Of a stretch of DNA of 63,304 bases, positions 4,494 through 43,850 are shown piece by piece. The DNA lies in UHGV virus genome UHGV-1374956; one strand, given 5' to 3'. A program made the position numbers and the translations under genes. The DNA comes from a virus. The notes beneath the pieces are model-generated. The model saw only the letters and a program-made list of their open reading frames with translations. It was not told the origin of the DNA and did not search any database. Each line of letters starts with the position of its first letter. The first letter of the stretch is position 1.

Positions 4494-4565
4494 TCGCGAA
4501 TTGAAGGATTTGAACCTCCGCCAACAGTTTTGGAGACTGTTATGCTACCGCTACACTAAACTCGC
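4494..4565 (-). tRNA. trnW: tRNA-Trp (anticodon CCA)
   Basis: The reverse complement folds as a cloverleaf: acceptor GCGAGTT/AATTCGC, anticodon stem ACAGT/ACTGT with loop CTCCAAA (CCA anticodon), and T-arm GGTTCAAATCC. No CCA 3' end is encoded. Confidence 0.8.
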
Positions 4566-5524: not shown

Positions 5525-5733
5525 TCTACCACCTTATACATTTCGCATTTAGTTCTATTTTTATCTAATATTATACTTTGAAATTCCTGTCCACAATTTT
5601 CACAAACTAGGTCCGTTGGTAATTTATGGAAATACGGTTCATCCGGGTGAGGGTCATACAATGCTATAACTTTACCTTGTTTACAAATAGGGCATTGACA
5701 CAATGTTTCTTTTGGTATTAGATTATTTTTCAT
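5521..5733 (-). CDS. Zn-ribbon small protein
   Basis: CQCPICKQ ... CENCGQ. Confidence 0.45.
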   Translation of the reverse strand: MKNNLIPKETLCQCPICKQGKVIALYDPHPDEPYFHKLPTDLVCENCGQEFQSIILDKNRTKCEMYKVVE

Positions 5734-6071
5734 TTTACTGCCTCGTTTAATTTCTTTTGTAATTGTGAAATATTATGTCTTAATCTCAATATTTCTTTAT
5801 CTTTTTCTACTATTGTATGAGATAATTGACATATTTGATTACGACAACCTTCATCATCTATAATTGAATAACCTCTATTTTCTAATTCATTTATGAGTTG
5901 TTTTATTTTATATGCTTTTATAGATTCAAATTCACATAGACTCAATGTTGTAACACATTCATATTCAACTAACAATTTTTTCTGCACATATATTATAATA
6001 TCAGAAATTGATATGCTTTTTACTATACTTGAAATATCAAAAAGCATGGGAAACTGATTTTCAATATTCAT
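5730..6071 (-). CDS. hypothetical protein
   Basis: 113-aa ORF with a coiled-coil C-terminus. Confidence 0.4.
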   Translation of the reverse strand: MNIENQFPMLFDISSIVKSISISDIIIYVQKKLLVEYECVTTLSLCEFESIKAYKIKQLINELENRGYSIIDDEGCRNQICQLSHTIVEKDKEILRLRHNISQLQKKLNEAVK

Positions 6072-39361: not shown

Positions 39362-39584
39362 TTTCCCTTACCTTTCCGTTCACTTGAATTACAGTAATTG
39401 CACCGCTTTTCTTTACTCTAATAACTTGCATTTGTTTTTCGTAAATTGGTTGTTTTTGAATTAGTAATACTGCACCAGCATTTTCTACTTCTACCAATTG
39501 AGTATTTTCTTTTAATTGTTCTTCTGCAAGTACACAATTAGAAAATAGTAAGAAAATGGCTAACAGAGAGAATATTTTCTTCAT
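39342..39584 (-). CDS. secreted small protein
   Basis: Signal peptide MKKIFSLLAIFLLFSNCVLA. Confidence 0.45.
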   Translation of the reverse strand: MKKIFSLLAIFLLFSNCVLAEEQLKENTQLVEVENAGAVLLIQKQPIYEKQMQVIRVKKSGAITVIQVNGKVRENDTNSK

Positions 39585-40132
39585 TAGTTACCTCCTTCTT
39601 CTTGATTTTCTGTAGTTTCATTTGTTTGCTTATATGTTTCTTCTTCAATATTTTGTTCACCTACAAAGTCTTTATTCAATTGCATACAGCATTCTTGAAC
39701 GAATTGAGGTGTTGCTTGTTTTACTTGTTGGTATTGCGTCCAATCTTCTACATCTTTACTAAAATTAGGTTCTGTATAACAAATAATAGATACTGGTTGA
39801 TTTAATGAAATTCCTAAAGAAATAGAAGGTAATAAATCTGTTAAGAAATCTTTAATTTCACCGTTTGCCATTGTAACTTTACGTCTAATATAGCCTAAAG
39901 AAGTATTGAAAAATTGTTCATTAAAATTAACTTTTCTCTCAGCTTCCTTTTTTGGTGCATATTCAGGATTAACTACAATTTTATTATTATCAACCATATA
40001 TTTATCTTCATCTGAAATATAGTCGTAATAAACATTTTCTTCTACAGAATAACTTTTAATTCCGCCCTTATTTATAGGTTCATTGCTTGCACTAATAATT
40101 TTATTGTTTTGTACGTTTAAATAAAATCCCAT
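39584..40132 (-). CDS. hypothetical protein
   Basis: 182-aa ORF with an acidic C-terminus. Confidence 0.4.
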   Translation of the reverse strand: MGFYLNVQNNKIISASNEPINKGGIKSYSVEENVYYDYISDEDKYMVDNNKIVVNPEYAPKKEAERKVNFNEQFFNTSLGYIRRKVTMANGEIKDFLTDLLPSISLGISLNQPVSIICYTEPNFSKDVEDWTQYQQVKQATPQFVQECCMQLNKDFVGEQNIEEETYKQTNETTENQEEGGN

Positions 40133-40185
40133 ATTTTCCTCCTTAATCTAAGTAAAATGAATTTCCATTCTTTTTAATAACTGTT

Positions 40186-41439
40186 TTAAATGGAAAATCT
40201 TCTAAGTTTATTTGTTGTAACTGTTTTTTCAACTACTTTACTTCTTGTAAATGTAATATGTAATTGTGTATCTTTTTCATTATCTGCAAATATAAATTGA
40301 AGTTTATTTGAATTTTCATTATTTATTTTGCAAGGTTTCCAAGAAGTAACTATTATAGGTTTATCTATTAAAGTTAAAATTGAAATTTTAGTGCCTGTCA
40401 TTGGAAATTCAGGTTTTGGACCTACATTTTTGAATTCTTTGATTGACATATCTTTTATTAAATTATCCAAGTCCAAGCTCCTTATTAAGTTATAAGTATA
40501 ACAATGTTTCGCATAACCTCTGTATGAATTTAATGTACATAATTGTTGTAGAAATGGTCTTTTATCTCTATTTTTAATTATGTCTAATACAGCTCTTTTA
40601 AATTTCTTAGCAGTTCTTTTTCTTAGAATAGTATAACCTCTGAAATGCCTGTAACCTAAGAAATCTATGCCTTGTTTAGTATGGAATACTTCGCTATAAC
40701 TCATCGATTGTTTTAATTCTACATCTATAAATTCGTGAATTAACTTTTGAATTACAAAAAGTTGTTCCTTACTATTAGATAGTATAACACAATCATCGCA
40801 ATATCTACAATAGTCTTTTACTTTTATTTTATGTTTCAATAGTTTATCTAGCTTATTTAGATATATGTTACCGAACAGTTGGCTGGTAAGATTACCAATT
40901 GGACAGTTTTTGCCTCCAGGGAATGAAAATATAATGTCCTTAATAATTTTTAACAATTTGACATCTTTTATCTTCTTGCATACTTCATCATATAAAATTT
41001 GCTGGTCAACAGTAGGATAAAACTTCTTTATATCTGTTTTTAGACAGTAGTCATTTTTCATAATTAGTTTTCTAAGTCTATAACTACCTGCTAATGGTCC
41101 TCTATCTTTTATACACCCATAAGAATGTTGAATAAAACCTTTAACAAATATTTCTTCTATAATATTATTTATTGCATGGTGTACAATTCTATCTTTAAGT
41201 GGTAGAATATAAATAAGTCTATGTTTACCATTTTCGAATATTTGTTTAGTGGAATATTTAGAGGTAGTAAATTTTCCTGCTATAACTTCCTGACGTATCT
41301 TTTCTAAATTTTCTTCTAAATTCTTTTCAAATTCTTGAACATCTTTTCTATCTCTTCTACCAAGTGCTGTTTTATACCAAGCAAGCCTAAAATTTTCTTT
41401 AGATATAAATTTATTCCATAAGTTTCCTACTCTCTTCAT
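40186..41439 (-). CDS. diversity-generating retroelement reverse transcriptase
   Basis: RT motifs, including the YCDDCV catalytic YxDD box. The DGR-specific IGNLTSQLFGNIYL (I/LGxxxSQ) signature is present. Adjacent TR/VR pair. Confidence 0.85.
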   Translation of the reverse strand: MKRVGNLWNKFISKENFRLAWYKTALGRRDRKDVQEFEKNLEENLEKIRQEVIAGKFTTSKYSTKQIFENGKHRLIYILPLKDRIVHHAINNIIEEIFVKGFIQHSYGCIKDRGPLAGSYRLRKLIMKNDYCLKTDIKKFYPTVDQQILYDEVCKKIKDVKLLKIIKDIIFSFPGGKNCPIGNLTSQLFGNIYLNKLDKLLKHKIKVKDYCRYCDDCVILSNSKEQLFVIQKLIHEFIDVELKQSMSYSEVFHTKQGIDFLGYRHFRGYTILRKRTAKKFKRAVLDIIKNRDKRPFLQQLCTLNSYRGYAKHCYTYNLIRSLDLDNLIKDMSIKEFKNVGPKPEFPMTGTKISILTLIDKPIIVTSWKPCKINNENSNKLQFIFADNEKDTQLHITFTRSKVVEKTVTTNKLRRFSI

Positions 41440-41578
41440 TTACCTCCTTAAAATAAAGGGCCCGAATTTTCGCATATTGCTACCAAAACTGACCCTTTTT
41501 CGTATTGTTTTTCCGCTATTTCTAACGAGAGGATTTAGGCCCCAGCTTGCACGACAAAGTTACCTTTTTGTACAATAA

Positions 41579-41688
41579 CACGCCCCGGCAACCATTATTC
41601 ACATTCGCATTCGTCAACGAATTATTCGAATTAGTAGCCCACGAACCGCAGTGCGTCGATTCATTGTAATTGCCACCAAGTCTCACCA
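41579..41688 (-). repeat. DGR template repeat (TR)
   Basis: 110 bp, 95/110 identical to the VR. On the coding (minus) strand it carries nine AAT codons. Confidence 0.85.
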
Positions 41689-41810
41689 GGAAGGGCCTTA
41701 ACCCTTATTAAGTTTTTAATGTTCTACGTCTTTAGTGCTTTGGATTTTGCATTAAGATTTTAGGAATACGGCCCACCTTCACTTCGTTCAGGAGGGCGTG
41801 TCCGTTCTGG

Positions 41811-43850
41811 TTATGCGTGTACACGTTCAACGTGCAAGCTCACGCCCCGGCAACCACTACCCACATACGTACCCGTCAACGAATCAGCCGAAGTAGTAGC
41901 CCACGAACCGCAGTGCGTCGAGTCATTGTAAGGGCCACCAAGTCCCACCACATAAGGTGTACCAAAATGGTCTCCTCGACGAGTATCTGCCCAAGCAGAC
42001 CAATCATGAGAACCGGTAGCGGCAATATCTCTAGAAACTTGCCATAAATAACCACAACAACATTCTACAAAGTATCCGGAAATCATACGTTTACCAGCAG
42101 TATCTAAATAACCTCCACATTTTTTATCAGAAGGAATTGCACTACCTTGAATATTTGTTTTTTGGTTAGAACCTTTAGAGAATATTCTAAATTCATCTGC
42201 ACTTGCTAACTGTTTACCTACTTGGTCCATATCTCCAAAGAATAACATATATTGTCTATTATTTGTAATTGTACCAGCGTAAGAACTTGCTGTAGAAGTA
42301 CCTGTACCACTTTGTAGGTAAATATCAACCCATTTCCTAATATTTCCTCTGTCTACAAATACTTGTCCTTTATTTCCTGTTAAGGCGGCAGAACGAAACG
42401 CTGGAGTCCAAGATGAATTAGGTATAAAGTAGCCTGCATTATAACCTATAGCCGGATGGTTAGCCCAAAAACTATCACTTAAAAGGGTTGGAGCATTACC
42501 TTCTGTTACTGCTTGACATAATGTGTGAGCTCCACCTATTTGAACTGCATTTGTAGTCCCTACTGGTAGATTTTCATTTAAACTTGCAATAAGTTGACCT
42601 TGATTATCTAAATAGAAATAATAATCTTTACCATTTTCTATTGAACCCGTATCTAAAATTTCTGAAATAGGTTTAAGAAAATCATTTTCAGTGTAGAAAG
42701 TGTCTCCATTTGCTTTTCTTATTGCGGTACCTGCTTTAATAGTTACATATTGTTTATCCGCAAAAATAAAGTTTGGTTGTTTATATTCAAATTCTCTATT
42801 CGCATACCAAATAATATTTGCTTTTTTTGGTAATTCTGCAAGACATTGGGTGGTATTAGCTAAAGAACTTTCATCTGCTCCTGTTGCTAATTGTACCATT
42901 GGTCTTAATTTGATTGAATTTGGTTGAACTGGTGCGTTATCTTGGTAGGTAGGAGAAGAAAGAGAAGCGTTGAAGCCTAAAGAAGTATTACCGGAAACCT
43001 GAGTAAAACTACCAACAACAGAACCAATACCACTATTGTAAAAAGCACCATTAAATAAACTACCATTATATTGGTTTCCTGTATTACCTTTAATATTCGG
43101 CAAACTTTCTGAAACATATTGACCGATTTTACTAACTTCATCTGCTTGTATATAAATTTCTTTAAGTTTAGGAACTTTAAATTTTTGATTTACAGTATCA
43201 AGCCCCCAGTATGTACATACACCAGTTTCTTCAATATTAGTTTCAAAAGTTTCATAATCCACCCAAGGTAGTGAATTAGCAACTAATAAATCATAAGGAT
43301 TAGTGTCACCTGTAAAATCAGCTTTGTTAAATTCTTGACCGTTACAATCATAAGCACCATTTAAAGAACTATCTTTACGATAAGTCCAAAAAACGTCACC
43401 TATATTTCTACCTACTGCCCCTTTATTTTCTAACATATAGAAACAATCTTGTGATAAATCATATCTTAATGTTACAAGCCAACCTTCAGGAATAGAGCCT
43501 GCTGTTAGTGCTAAATTTTTAAGAGTTTTAATTTGTTTAGCTCCTAAATTGTTTACATTTACATAGCAATTACCTGTATTAGCGGTTGATGATTTAAAAA
43601 CAACCTCCATACCATTAAAATAGCTTGTAGGTGCTATGTTTTGTGAATCATCTGCGTATGTAACGGGTTCTAATACATAAGTATTTGAACTAAAACTTGT
43701 ATTCTCATAAAAAGAACCATTACTTGCATAAACTGGAAGCATATTTGTGAGATTGTTGATACCCTCCCCTATGGTATTCATGTGGATAGGCATGACAGTT
43801 TCATTTTGATTCCAAGTTGTTTTTTGGTCTGCTGTCAAATTGTTTGGCAT
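41811..43850 (-). CDS. tail fibre / receptor-binding protein, DGR target (C-terminal variable region)
   Basis: 679 aa, last gene of the tail module. The VR encodes the C-terminal ~37 codons (GLGGPYNDSTHCGSWATTSADSLTGTYVGSGCRGV). Confidence 0.75.
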   Translation of the reverse strand: MPNNLTADQKTTWNQNETVMPIHMNTIGEGINNLTNMLPVYASNGSFYENTSFSSNTYVLEPVTYADDSQNIAPTSYFNGMEVVFKSSTANTGNCYVNVNNLGAKQIKTLKNLALTAGSIPEGWLVTLRYDLSQDCFYMLENKGAVGRNIGDVFWTYRKDSSLNGAYDCNGQEFNKADFTGDTNPYDLLVANSLPWVDYETFETNIEETGVCTYWGLDTVNQKFKVPKLKEIYIQADEVSKIGQYVSESLPNIKGNTGNQYNGSLFNGAFYNSGIGSVVGSFTQVSGNTSLGFNASLSSPTYQDNAPVQPNSIKLRPMVQLATGADESSLANTTQCLAELPKKANIIWYANREFEYKQPNFIFADKQYVTIKAGTAIRKANGDTFYTENDFLKPISEILDTGSIENGKDYYFYLDNQGQLIASLNENLPVGTTNAVQIGGAHTLCQAVTEGNAPTLLSDSFWANHPAIGYNAGYFIPNSSWTPAFRSAALTGNKGQVFVDRGNIRKWVDIYLQSGTGTSTASSYAGTITNNRQYMLFFGDMDQVGKQLASADEFRIFSKGSNQKTNIQGSAIPSDKKCGGYLDTAGKRMISGYFVECCCGYLWQVSRDIAATGSHDWSAWADTRRGDHFGTPYVVGLGGPYNDSTHCGSWATTSADSLTGTYVGSGCRGVSLHVERVHA
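41841..41950 (-). repeat. DGR variable repeat (VR) at the 3' end of the tail-fibre gene
   Basis: 14 of 15 TR/VR mismatches fall at TR adenines (minus strand). GC-rich IMH-like GGTTGCCGGGGCGTG is shared at the 3' end. Confidence 0.85.

Follow-up and report, generated by a model that had tools for sequence, protein, structure and literature searches.

The 63,304-nt virus genome UHGV-1374956, hereafter the window (the whole stretch of DNA that was analysed), carries on its minus strand, within positions 40186-43850, a tail-fibre gene, a non-coding region with a copy of the 3' part of this gene, and a gene for a reverse transcriptase (RT), in this order (Table 1). The window is the nearly complete genome of a contractile-tailed phage of ~63 kb, and the three elements lie in its tail module, where the fibre gene directly follows the Baseplate_J and Mu Gp48-like genes. 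The locus is very likely a diversity-generating retroelement (DGR) aimed at the Mtd-like tip of the tail fibre and lacking the protein Avd. The initial annotation, made from the letters of the sequence, had proposed such an element, with a switch of phage tropism "as in" Bordetella phage BPP-1 as its consequence.

The sole long direct repeat of the region, found by a repeat search, joins 41570-41688 and 41832-41950 at an offset of 262 nt. It contains the template repeat (TR), which is non-genic, and the variable repeat (VR), located in the 679-codon target open reading frame (ORF). Both had been proposed as 110-bp minus-strand repeats, with the VR within the last ~50 codons of the fibre gene, and both were reproduced to the base. 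A base-by-base comparison on the coding strand revealed 15 mismatches, and their tabulation by base, in agreement with the initial count, places 14 of them at TR adenines (8 A>G, 5 A>C, and 1 A>T). Since the TR contains 27 adenines, of which 14 are changed, the hypergeometric probability of this bias over 110 nt is 1.4e-9. Nine AAT codons are present in frame in the TR, as counted before, and their VR counterparts are CCT, AAT, ACT, GCT, GAT, GGT, TAT, GGT, and AGT; the earlier assignment of ACT, GCT, GGT, and TAT to AAT sites was therefore correct, but GAC, listed together with them, arises from TR codon 643 (GAA). The adenines occupy codon positions 1, 2, and 3 in the numbers 13, 12, and 2, and their layout permits ~1e15 peptides, with AGA (codon 636) as the sole codon that could turn into a stop. 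The 54-aa ORF running over the TR is spurious. No second VR was found in the whole window by a scan accepting any base at TR adenines.

At their 3' side both repeats have the same GC-rich 15 nt, GGTTGCCGGGGCGTG, which bears out the shared end described in the initial annotation. Further 3' the repeats part, with AGCTTGCAC in the VR and TTATTGTAC in the TR, where 5 of 9 positions match. An identical GC-rich end followed by divergence, as read from the two sequences, is compatible with an IMH/IMH* pair (IMH, initiation of mutagenic homing), and by analogy with BPP-1 GGTTGCCGGGGCGTG would be the site at which mutagenic homing starts. An exact 15-mer scan of viral contigs for this end returned nearly exclusively chance matches, with only the related contig L061 being relevant, and an exact search for the TR/VR-end pattern in genome contigs gave no match. 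The imperfect inverted repeat that spans the VR end and the stop codon of the target may correspond to the hairpin or cruciform that BPP-1 requires just downstream of its VR; no convincing equivalent was found in distant relatives.

The RT motifs and the IGNLTSQ box reported earlier for the 417-aa ORF were both recovered, the former as a match to RVT_1 and the latter within CPIGNLTSQLF at residues 179-189. Among solved structures, the best match of the RT is the Bordetella phage DGR RT (bRT; 8ub7_A, E 9e-48, 166 bits, residues 2-320), whereas no RT annotated as group II intron or retron exceeds 67 bits. The RT matches PHROG 1423 (E 2e-103), and its scores with the NCBIfam models for group II, retron, and DRT enzymes stay far below the cut-offs (127 versus 300, 57 versus 235, and 48 versus 200, respectively). 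The class was assigned from these search scores together with the [I/L/V]GxxxSQ motif (QGxxxSP in the group II form), and on this basis the RT resembles, in sequence, the enzyme of the Bordetella phage DGR much more than those of group II introns or retrons. The identity of the best deposited RTs to it does not exceed 40%, and a megablast search of INPHARED found no near-identical phage.

The target protein consists of a lineage-specific N-terminal part (residues 1 to ~345) and a C-terminal half that resembles Mtd. In this half, Pfam PF21916 (mtd_2nd) was detected at residues 365-455 (E 1e-10) and PHROG 11262 "tail protein" at residues 346-674, and phmmer aligned residues 360-674 to residues 56-378 of Mtd (1yu1). 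A profile built from 36 target homologues and compared with the PDB also found Mtd (E 2.6e-29). Judged by these sequence matches, the C-terminal half of the target is a true Mtd homologue. The AlphaFold (AF2) model has a predicted local distance difference test score (pLDDT) of 78, lower over the last ~60 residues, and a predicted template-modelling score (pTM) of 0.81. Foldseek with this model gave Mtd as the best match (E 7e-20, template-modelling score 0.71), followed by FGE, TvpA (2y3c), and TaqVP (5vf4), all of them C-type-lectin folds of the family that DGRs use. The VR region is thus placed, in the model, in a predicted C-type-lectin fold, the fold for which the initial annotation had suggested modelling the fibre C-terminus.

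Comparison of the VR across related contigs served as a proxy for population sequencing. The set of loci sharing the TR comprises the window, L061 (L061/L001, from IMG/VR), and L064, L065, and L066 (ENA assemblies). The TR is identical in all five save one position (A, G, or T at 41680). In contrast, the VRs of the same five loci contain, relative to the TR, 48 substitutions at adenine sites (21 A>G, 16 A>C, and 11 A>T) versus 3 elsewhere, and 21 of 28 adenine positions are changed at least once. The VR is also the least conserved segment of the cassette, with 84% (L064) and 81% (L066) identity to the window; the respective values are 89% and 89% for the Mtd-like coding part, 99% and 99% for the spacer leading from the target stop to the TR, 99% and 99% for the TR, 100% and 98.6% for the spacer that separates the TR from the RT gene, and 92% and 96% for the RT core. 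Moreover, in each of 11 loci from the same RT subclade the TR/VR pair is biased toward adenines (e.g., 17 of 17, 18 of 18, and 24 of 24 mismatches). The contigs of L061, L065, and L074, which are independent assemblies of related phages, end inside the VR, which is consistent with VR polymorphism or with assembly breaks induced by the repeat.

The relatives also inform about the extent of the cassette. Outside it, in the remainder of the tail module, L061 and L064 share only 71-76% identity with the window, versus 88-90% across 42962-39753. Because identity steps up at 42962, the Mtd-like module, TR, and RT behave as a unit, and from these alignments they look like an exchangeable one. At the upstream edge of the conserved cassette, nt 42951-43100 of the target gene (codons ~250-300) are only ~40% identical to L064 and L066. 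A different rearrangement was noticed in L068 (positions 5600-6003; ERZ28653917 scaffold_2353) when compared with L069: the target gene runs directly into the TR sequence and the spacer between TR and RT. From the sequence, it looks like a recombination between VR and TR which deleted the intervening ~250 nt and left an unmutated, TR-like tip.

The non-coding part of the cassette appears to encode a structured RNA. The segment 41440-41720 folds better than shuffled sequences (z = -2.3), and the minimum free energy fold contains a duplex between segments flanking the TR, whose 5' strand is GGGUUAAGGCCC. In the window compared with L064 and L066, the non-coding flanks are 98.6-100% identical versus 89-92% for the coding sequence. 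The long terminal hairpin, with its [A/G]GUA...GAA element and a covarying outer stem of unrelated sequences, was found by a script in 11 of 11 loci. The TR-flanking duplex recurs with lineage-specific sequences; it was read by hand, as the automatic search missed some loci and over-extended some duplexes. As judged by script and by eye, the spacer hairpin and the TR-flanking duplex predicted from these sequences covary across the relatives. A scan for promoters and terminators gave counts no higher than in shuffled sequence.

The RT of the window is ~100 aa longer than bRT (328 aa), and this C-terminal extension is kept down to ~40% RT identity. Its model (pLDDT 83.7) shows a helix and a five-stranded beta-barrel, and fold matches in BFVD include C-termini of phage RTs, phage proteins of ~100 aa, and single-stranded DNA-binding proteins. 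The domain is therefore, on the strength of the model, probably similar to oligonucleotide/oligosaccharide-binding (OB) folds and predicted to bind nucleic acid. No known domain was recognised in the extension by Pfam (best AHSA1, E 0.09) or by sequence search of the PDB. Many relatives have RTs of ~335-345 aa, and in these the domain is encoded as a separate ORF overlapping the RT stop; L067 possesses both a fused and a free copy. As for Avd, the Pfam model PF05635 detected none (E<0.0025) among 59 window ORFs of 60-240 aa, and a local hidden Markov model (HMM) detected none among six-frame window ORFs of at least 60 aa, although the same HMM found 52 Avd-positive loci among 175 scanned. The gaps flanking the TR are 122 and 139 nt long. 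In 165 RT-centred loci, which are phylogenetically non-independent, the OB-like module alone was present in 89, Avd alone in 51, neither in 25, and both in 0. The Avd-bearing loci are those with the more distant RTs, and the mutual exclusion may for this reason reflect few evolutionary events.

It can be proposed, tentatively and with the balance of chances slightly against it, that the fused or adjacent ~100-aa domain is an undescribed DGR accessory factor which replaces Avd in a large, mostly phage-borne lineage of RTs. Presumably, such a factor would bind either the cDNA as it is made or the spacer RNA at its 5' stem-loop, the counterpart of the BPP-1 Avd-binding one, which is kept in these Avd-less elements. 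A literature search revealed no paper in which such RT extensions are given an OB-like fold or a role like that of Avd. In the survey by Wu et al. (2018; PMC5758913), DGRs free of accessory genes are given as 29%, those without avd as 26% (Avd in 74%), and RTs with C-terminal extensions as ~20%; in BPP-1, Avd is essential. Other candidates for accessory genes were considered. The 182-aa ORF with an acidic tail at 39584-40132 (minus strand), directly after the RT gene, was considered as a CH1 or DUF4376-like accessory gene but matched nothing in Pfam, NCBIfam, or PHROG, and hhalign with the downstream proteins of Hankyphage (there a DUF4376 protein), L067, and L070 gave a probability of 0.4%. 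It occupies the same position in L073, L074, L075, L069, and L153, being conserved beside the RT in the clade, and is at most a putative part of the DGR. A 121-aa ORF between target and TR in L070 gave no match as Avd. In some relatives, a second small conserved protein or domain with the motifs NTK(Q/A)DY...GFTVEEVQELL (NTKQDYLN...) follows the OB-like ORF (Table 1); this family is absent from the window.

Among known systems, the locus can be compared most closely with the mtd-avd-TR-brt cassette of BPP-1. Both have an Mtd-homologous target with the VR at the C-terminal C-type-lectin tip, the order target-TR-RT, a spacer of ~140 nt, a TR designed around AAY codons, and a GC-rich common 3' end, and bRT is the RT to which that of the window is most similar. 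The RNA elements correspond as well: the stem-loop after the TR, the TR-flanking duplex, the small GAAA hairpin with the A-rich single strand after it, and the long RT-proximal hairpin have as counterparts in the BPP-1 ribonucleoprotein, in order, the Avd-binding stem-loop, the cPRT-Stop duplex with a stem-loop and adenosines, the Thumb Ring, and the bRT-binding stem (bioRxiv 10.1101/2023.10.23.563531). However, the window has no avd, its RT carries the ~100-aa C-terminal domain that bRT is without, its target has an N-terminal extension of ~345 aa, and its TR is 110 nt long versus 134. Host and phage are also unrelated (the window has 31% GC and a contractile tail), and the target-site hairpin is unconvincing in the window. 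The parallel with BPP-1 drawn in the initial annotation thus extends to the logic of the system and to how the RNA is built, whereas the set of proteins differs.

Hankyphage (Bacteroides phage p00 / BKO1-TP1), a gut phage with a C-type-lectin target, shares the sequence of target, TR gap, and ~430-aa RT with no annotated Avd homologue. Its RT aligns over residues 1-422, and the C-terminus of that RT matches the profile of the window C-terminal domain (hhalign probability 82%, E 1e-5); the local HMM of the domain at E 1e-4 did not pick it up. On the other hand, RT identity is only 30%, the Hankyphage target has 2,240 aa and is not Mtd-like, and Hankyphage is temperate, transposable, and similar to siphoviruses (Benler et al., 2018; PMC6199706). 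The absence of an accessory gene is shared with the Avd-less "Architecture A1" (TR-RT core) of the 2018 survey, and the extension resembles those described there, lying downstream of the thumb without a recognisable motif; Mtd-type targets make up ~3% of DGR targets and are phage-associated (Wu et al., 2018; PMC5758913). The survey differs from the present data in giving no fold to the extensions and, in its accessible part, in not describing a free ~100-aa homologue or the exclusion of Avd. Of the Rfam motif series to which RT-3 and RT-14 belong, RT-10 is the spacer of BPP-1 (Weinberg et al., 2017; PMC5737381); the spacer of the window stays below the gathering scores of RT-3 and RT-14 and so falls outside both of these curated families.

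If the locus functions like its relatives among DGRs, transcription would yield an RNA comprising the 110-nt TR, a short stretch upstream of it, and the spacer of 139 nt. Pairing of the TR-flanking segments into a duplex, together with the long spacer hairpin, would place the TR 3' end in the RT, which would copy the TR to cDNA while inserting any nucleotide opposite template adenines. The cDNA would then replace the VR, homing via the common GC-rich 3' end. We infer cis-priming and homing through the IMH-like end, and suppose that the fused, probably OB-like domain would do the job of BPP-1 Avd. In consequence, up to 16 codons, nine of them AAT, could be re-randomised in the C-type-lectin tip and the receptor specificity of the fibre could change, so that the tropism switching proposed at the outset would be the expected outcome.

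Several observations weigh against a DGR at work in this genome, some concerning its nature and others its present state. Regarding the former, one mismatch is off adenine (G>A, TR 41608 / VR 41870); the G is kept in all TRs compared, those of the window and four relatives, so the change arose in the window VR. The inverted repeat at the VR end folds as DNA with -12.6 kcal/mol (z = -0.59), no better than shuffled sequences. In the Rfam search, only RT-3 (RF03068, 18.6 bits versus a gathering score of 40.5) and RT-14 (RF02921, 26 bits versus 48.1) were hit, both below the gathering score; these alignments cover the full models and lie exactly in the TR-RT spacer. It could be argued that the 110-nt pair arose by ordinary duplication, or is left over from gene conversion, and diverges by normal mutation beside an unrelated RT, as direct repeats are common near mobile-element genes and the G>A change would fit such a history. 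We consider this extremely improbable given the adenine bias (P 1.4e-9), which recurs in 11 independent loci, the invariance of one copy while the other varies across relatives, the concentration of adenines at codon positions 1 and 2, and the DGR-type RT. Equally improbable is the view that the RT is of retron, group II intron, or defence type and does not act on the tail fibre. The Joint Genome Institute (JGI) name of the identical database protein P0002, "retron-type reverse transcriptase", and the weak NCBIfam similarity to group II, retron, and DRT models speak for it; yet these scores are far under the curated cut-offs, bRT leads the solved matches by 100 bits, the TR/VR pair adjoins the RT gene, and the Rfam search found neither intron RNA domains nor msr/msd-like families.

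The more serious question is whether the cassette of the window, taken as a genuine DGR, is still alive. The length of 417 aa given for the RT in the initial annotation is correct for the ORF as it stands, but it represents a frameshifted form of a 431-aa protein. Compared with L066, L064, and L001, the minus-strand A6 run at 40224-40229 has an extra A, which shifts the frame after residue ~405, so that 14 unrelated residues stand in place of the last ~28. The strands lost, FPF...GNxFYLE, are the best-conserved end of the C-terminal domain. The 417-aa RT is identical to P0002, which was read on 5 contigs, and a random assembly error is therefore unlikely. L071, a contig from another assembly, shows no difference from the window over 6 kb, VR included, and exactly the 679-aa target protein of the window is present on 4 contigs, so that nothing points directly to diversification still going on in this lineage. 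Furthermore, the RT cluster at 90% identity (P0121-P0132) contains gene calls of 305 aa, starting at the internal Met127, and of 108 aa, covering the C-terminal domain only; they sit on contigs of near-identical phages up to 64 kb long. Read together, these gene calls suggest recurrent disruption of the RT gene in the lineage. Given the truncated C-terminal domain, the cassette may have been recently inactivated or weakened in the window genome, with the VR frozen in its last state. In the stronger form of this explanation, the extra A wrecks the C-terminal domain, homing has stopped, and the VR is a relic, whose single non-adenine change could be drift after inactivation. The loss of the most conserved strands, the spread of the 417-aa allele and of the identical target, VR included, and the other disrupted forms in near relatives (305 aa and 108 aa) favour it. 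However, the damage is confined to the last 28 of ~431 residues and spares the RT core; the TR, the spacer, and the rest of the RT are without decay, being 96-100% identical to L066, whose RT is intact; and the identical contigs may stem from one population or from one data set processed repeatedly. A dead element is thus a substantial possibility, to which we give a little less than an even chance.

The identification of the locus as a DGR, dead or alive, presents a textbook situation and enlarges a catalogue of thousands by a further uncultivated phage. Its value lies in being a clean, compact, and very BPP-1-like example, which combines an Mtd homologue with a TR of 110 nt and a spacer of 139 nt and lacks Avd. 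What the set of relatives adds is that the missing helper seems replaced by a small domain, either as an RT fusion or as the product of an ORF directly behind the RT gene. If it is true that this domain substitutes for Avd, it would explain the working of the ~25-30% of DGRs that are Avd-less, left open in the 2018 survey, and engineered targeted mutagenesis would gain a single-polypeptide RT.

Table 1. Features of the DGR cassette; positions are those of the window unless a contig is named.
Feature	Position	Strand	Remarks
Target gene	41811-43850	minus	679-aa tail-fibre or receptor-binding protein
Mtd-like module of target	41811-42773	minus	residues ~360-679; beta-sandwich and C-type-lectin domain
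VR	41841-41950	minus	110 nt; codons 634-670 of target ORF
GC-rich 3' end GGTTGCCGGGGCGTG	41841-41855 (VR); 41579-41593 (TR)	minus	15 nt shared, identical
Imperfect inverted repeat	41794-41847	minus	GGGCGTG...CACGCCC, inner CACGT-TGA-ACGTG hairpin
Spacer, target stop to TR	41689-41810	minus	non-coding; without Avd ORF
5' duplex strand GGGUUAAGGCCC	41693-41704	minus	pairs with TR-to-RT spacer (Sp) nt 36-48, 12-13 bp
TR	41579-41688	minus	110 nt
TR-to-RT spacer (Sp)	41440-41578	minus	139 nt
GUAA-tetraloop stem-loop	41549-41573	minus	right after TR; position of BPP-1 Avd-binding stem-loop
3' strand of TR-flanking duplex	41531-41543	minus	in Sp
Small GAAA hairpin	41514-41527	minus	in Sp
A-rich single strand	about 41496-41513	minus	in Sp
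Long terminal hairpin	41455-41498	minus	GGUA/CGAA internal loop; ends 15 nt before RT start
RT gene	40186-41439	minus	417 aa as it stands; RVT_1
RT core	about 40465-41439	minus	residues 1 to ~325; IGNLTSQ 181-187, YCDD 213-216; extension from residue ~326
RT C-terminal domain coding region	40143-40464	minus	~100 aa in intact relatives; ancestral frame stop 40143-40145
Second small protein (relatives)	L067 7631-7894; L070 7290-7589; L105/L152/L174 downstream of OB-like ORF		RT-fused in P0053 and P0104

The remainder of the window is that of a tailed phage, with genes for terminase, portal, capsid, sheath, tape measure, baseplate, lysis proteins, a family A DNA polymerase, DnaB, and ligase. No integrase or recombinase was found among the window ORFs scanned, which are a part of all ORFs, and a DNA polymerase, a helicase, a clamp loader, and a ligase are all encoded by the phage itself; as far as gene content can tell, the phage may therefore be virulent. 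DGR phages have been claimed to be temperate (Benler et al., 2018; PMC6199706), and a virulent DGR phage would be unusual. The closest genomic relative of the cassette, L153 (35.6% GC), lies in a prophage-like region of a 108-kb contig (QHMH01000010.1) of a Candidatus Melainabacteria metagenome-assembled genome; its RT is 59% identical, and synteny with the window extends over the target, TR, RT, downstream ORF, and DUF1353. This sequence relationship gives a weak hint at Melainabacteria as the host group, and the source of the phage is possibly the gut. Elsewhere in the window, a tRNA-Trp (CCA) gene is located at 4495-4565 (minus strand), on which ARAGORN and Rfam agree. The segment 22494-26459 (minus strand) harbours a 7-deazaguanine (queuosine-precursor) cluster encoding GTP cyclohydrolase I, a radical-SAM QueE-like protein, PTPS/QueD, QueC, and a 525-aa protein with a C-terminal QueF domain and an N-terminal part that is DpdA/TGT-like by eye only; from this gene content, the phage probably modifies its DNA.

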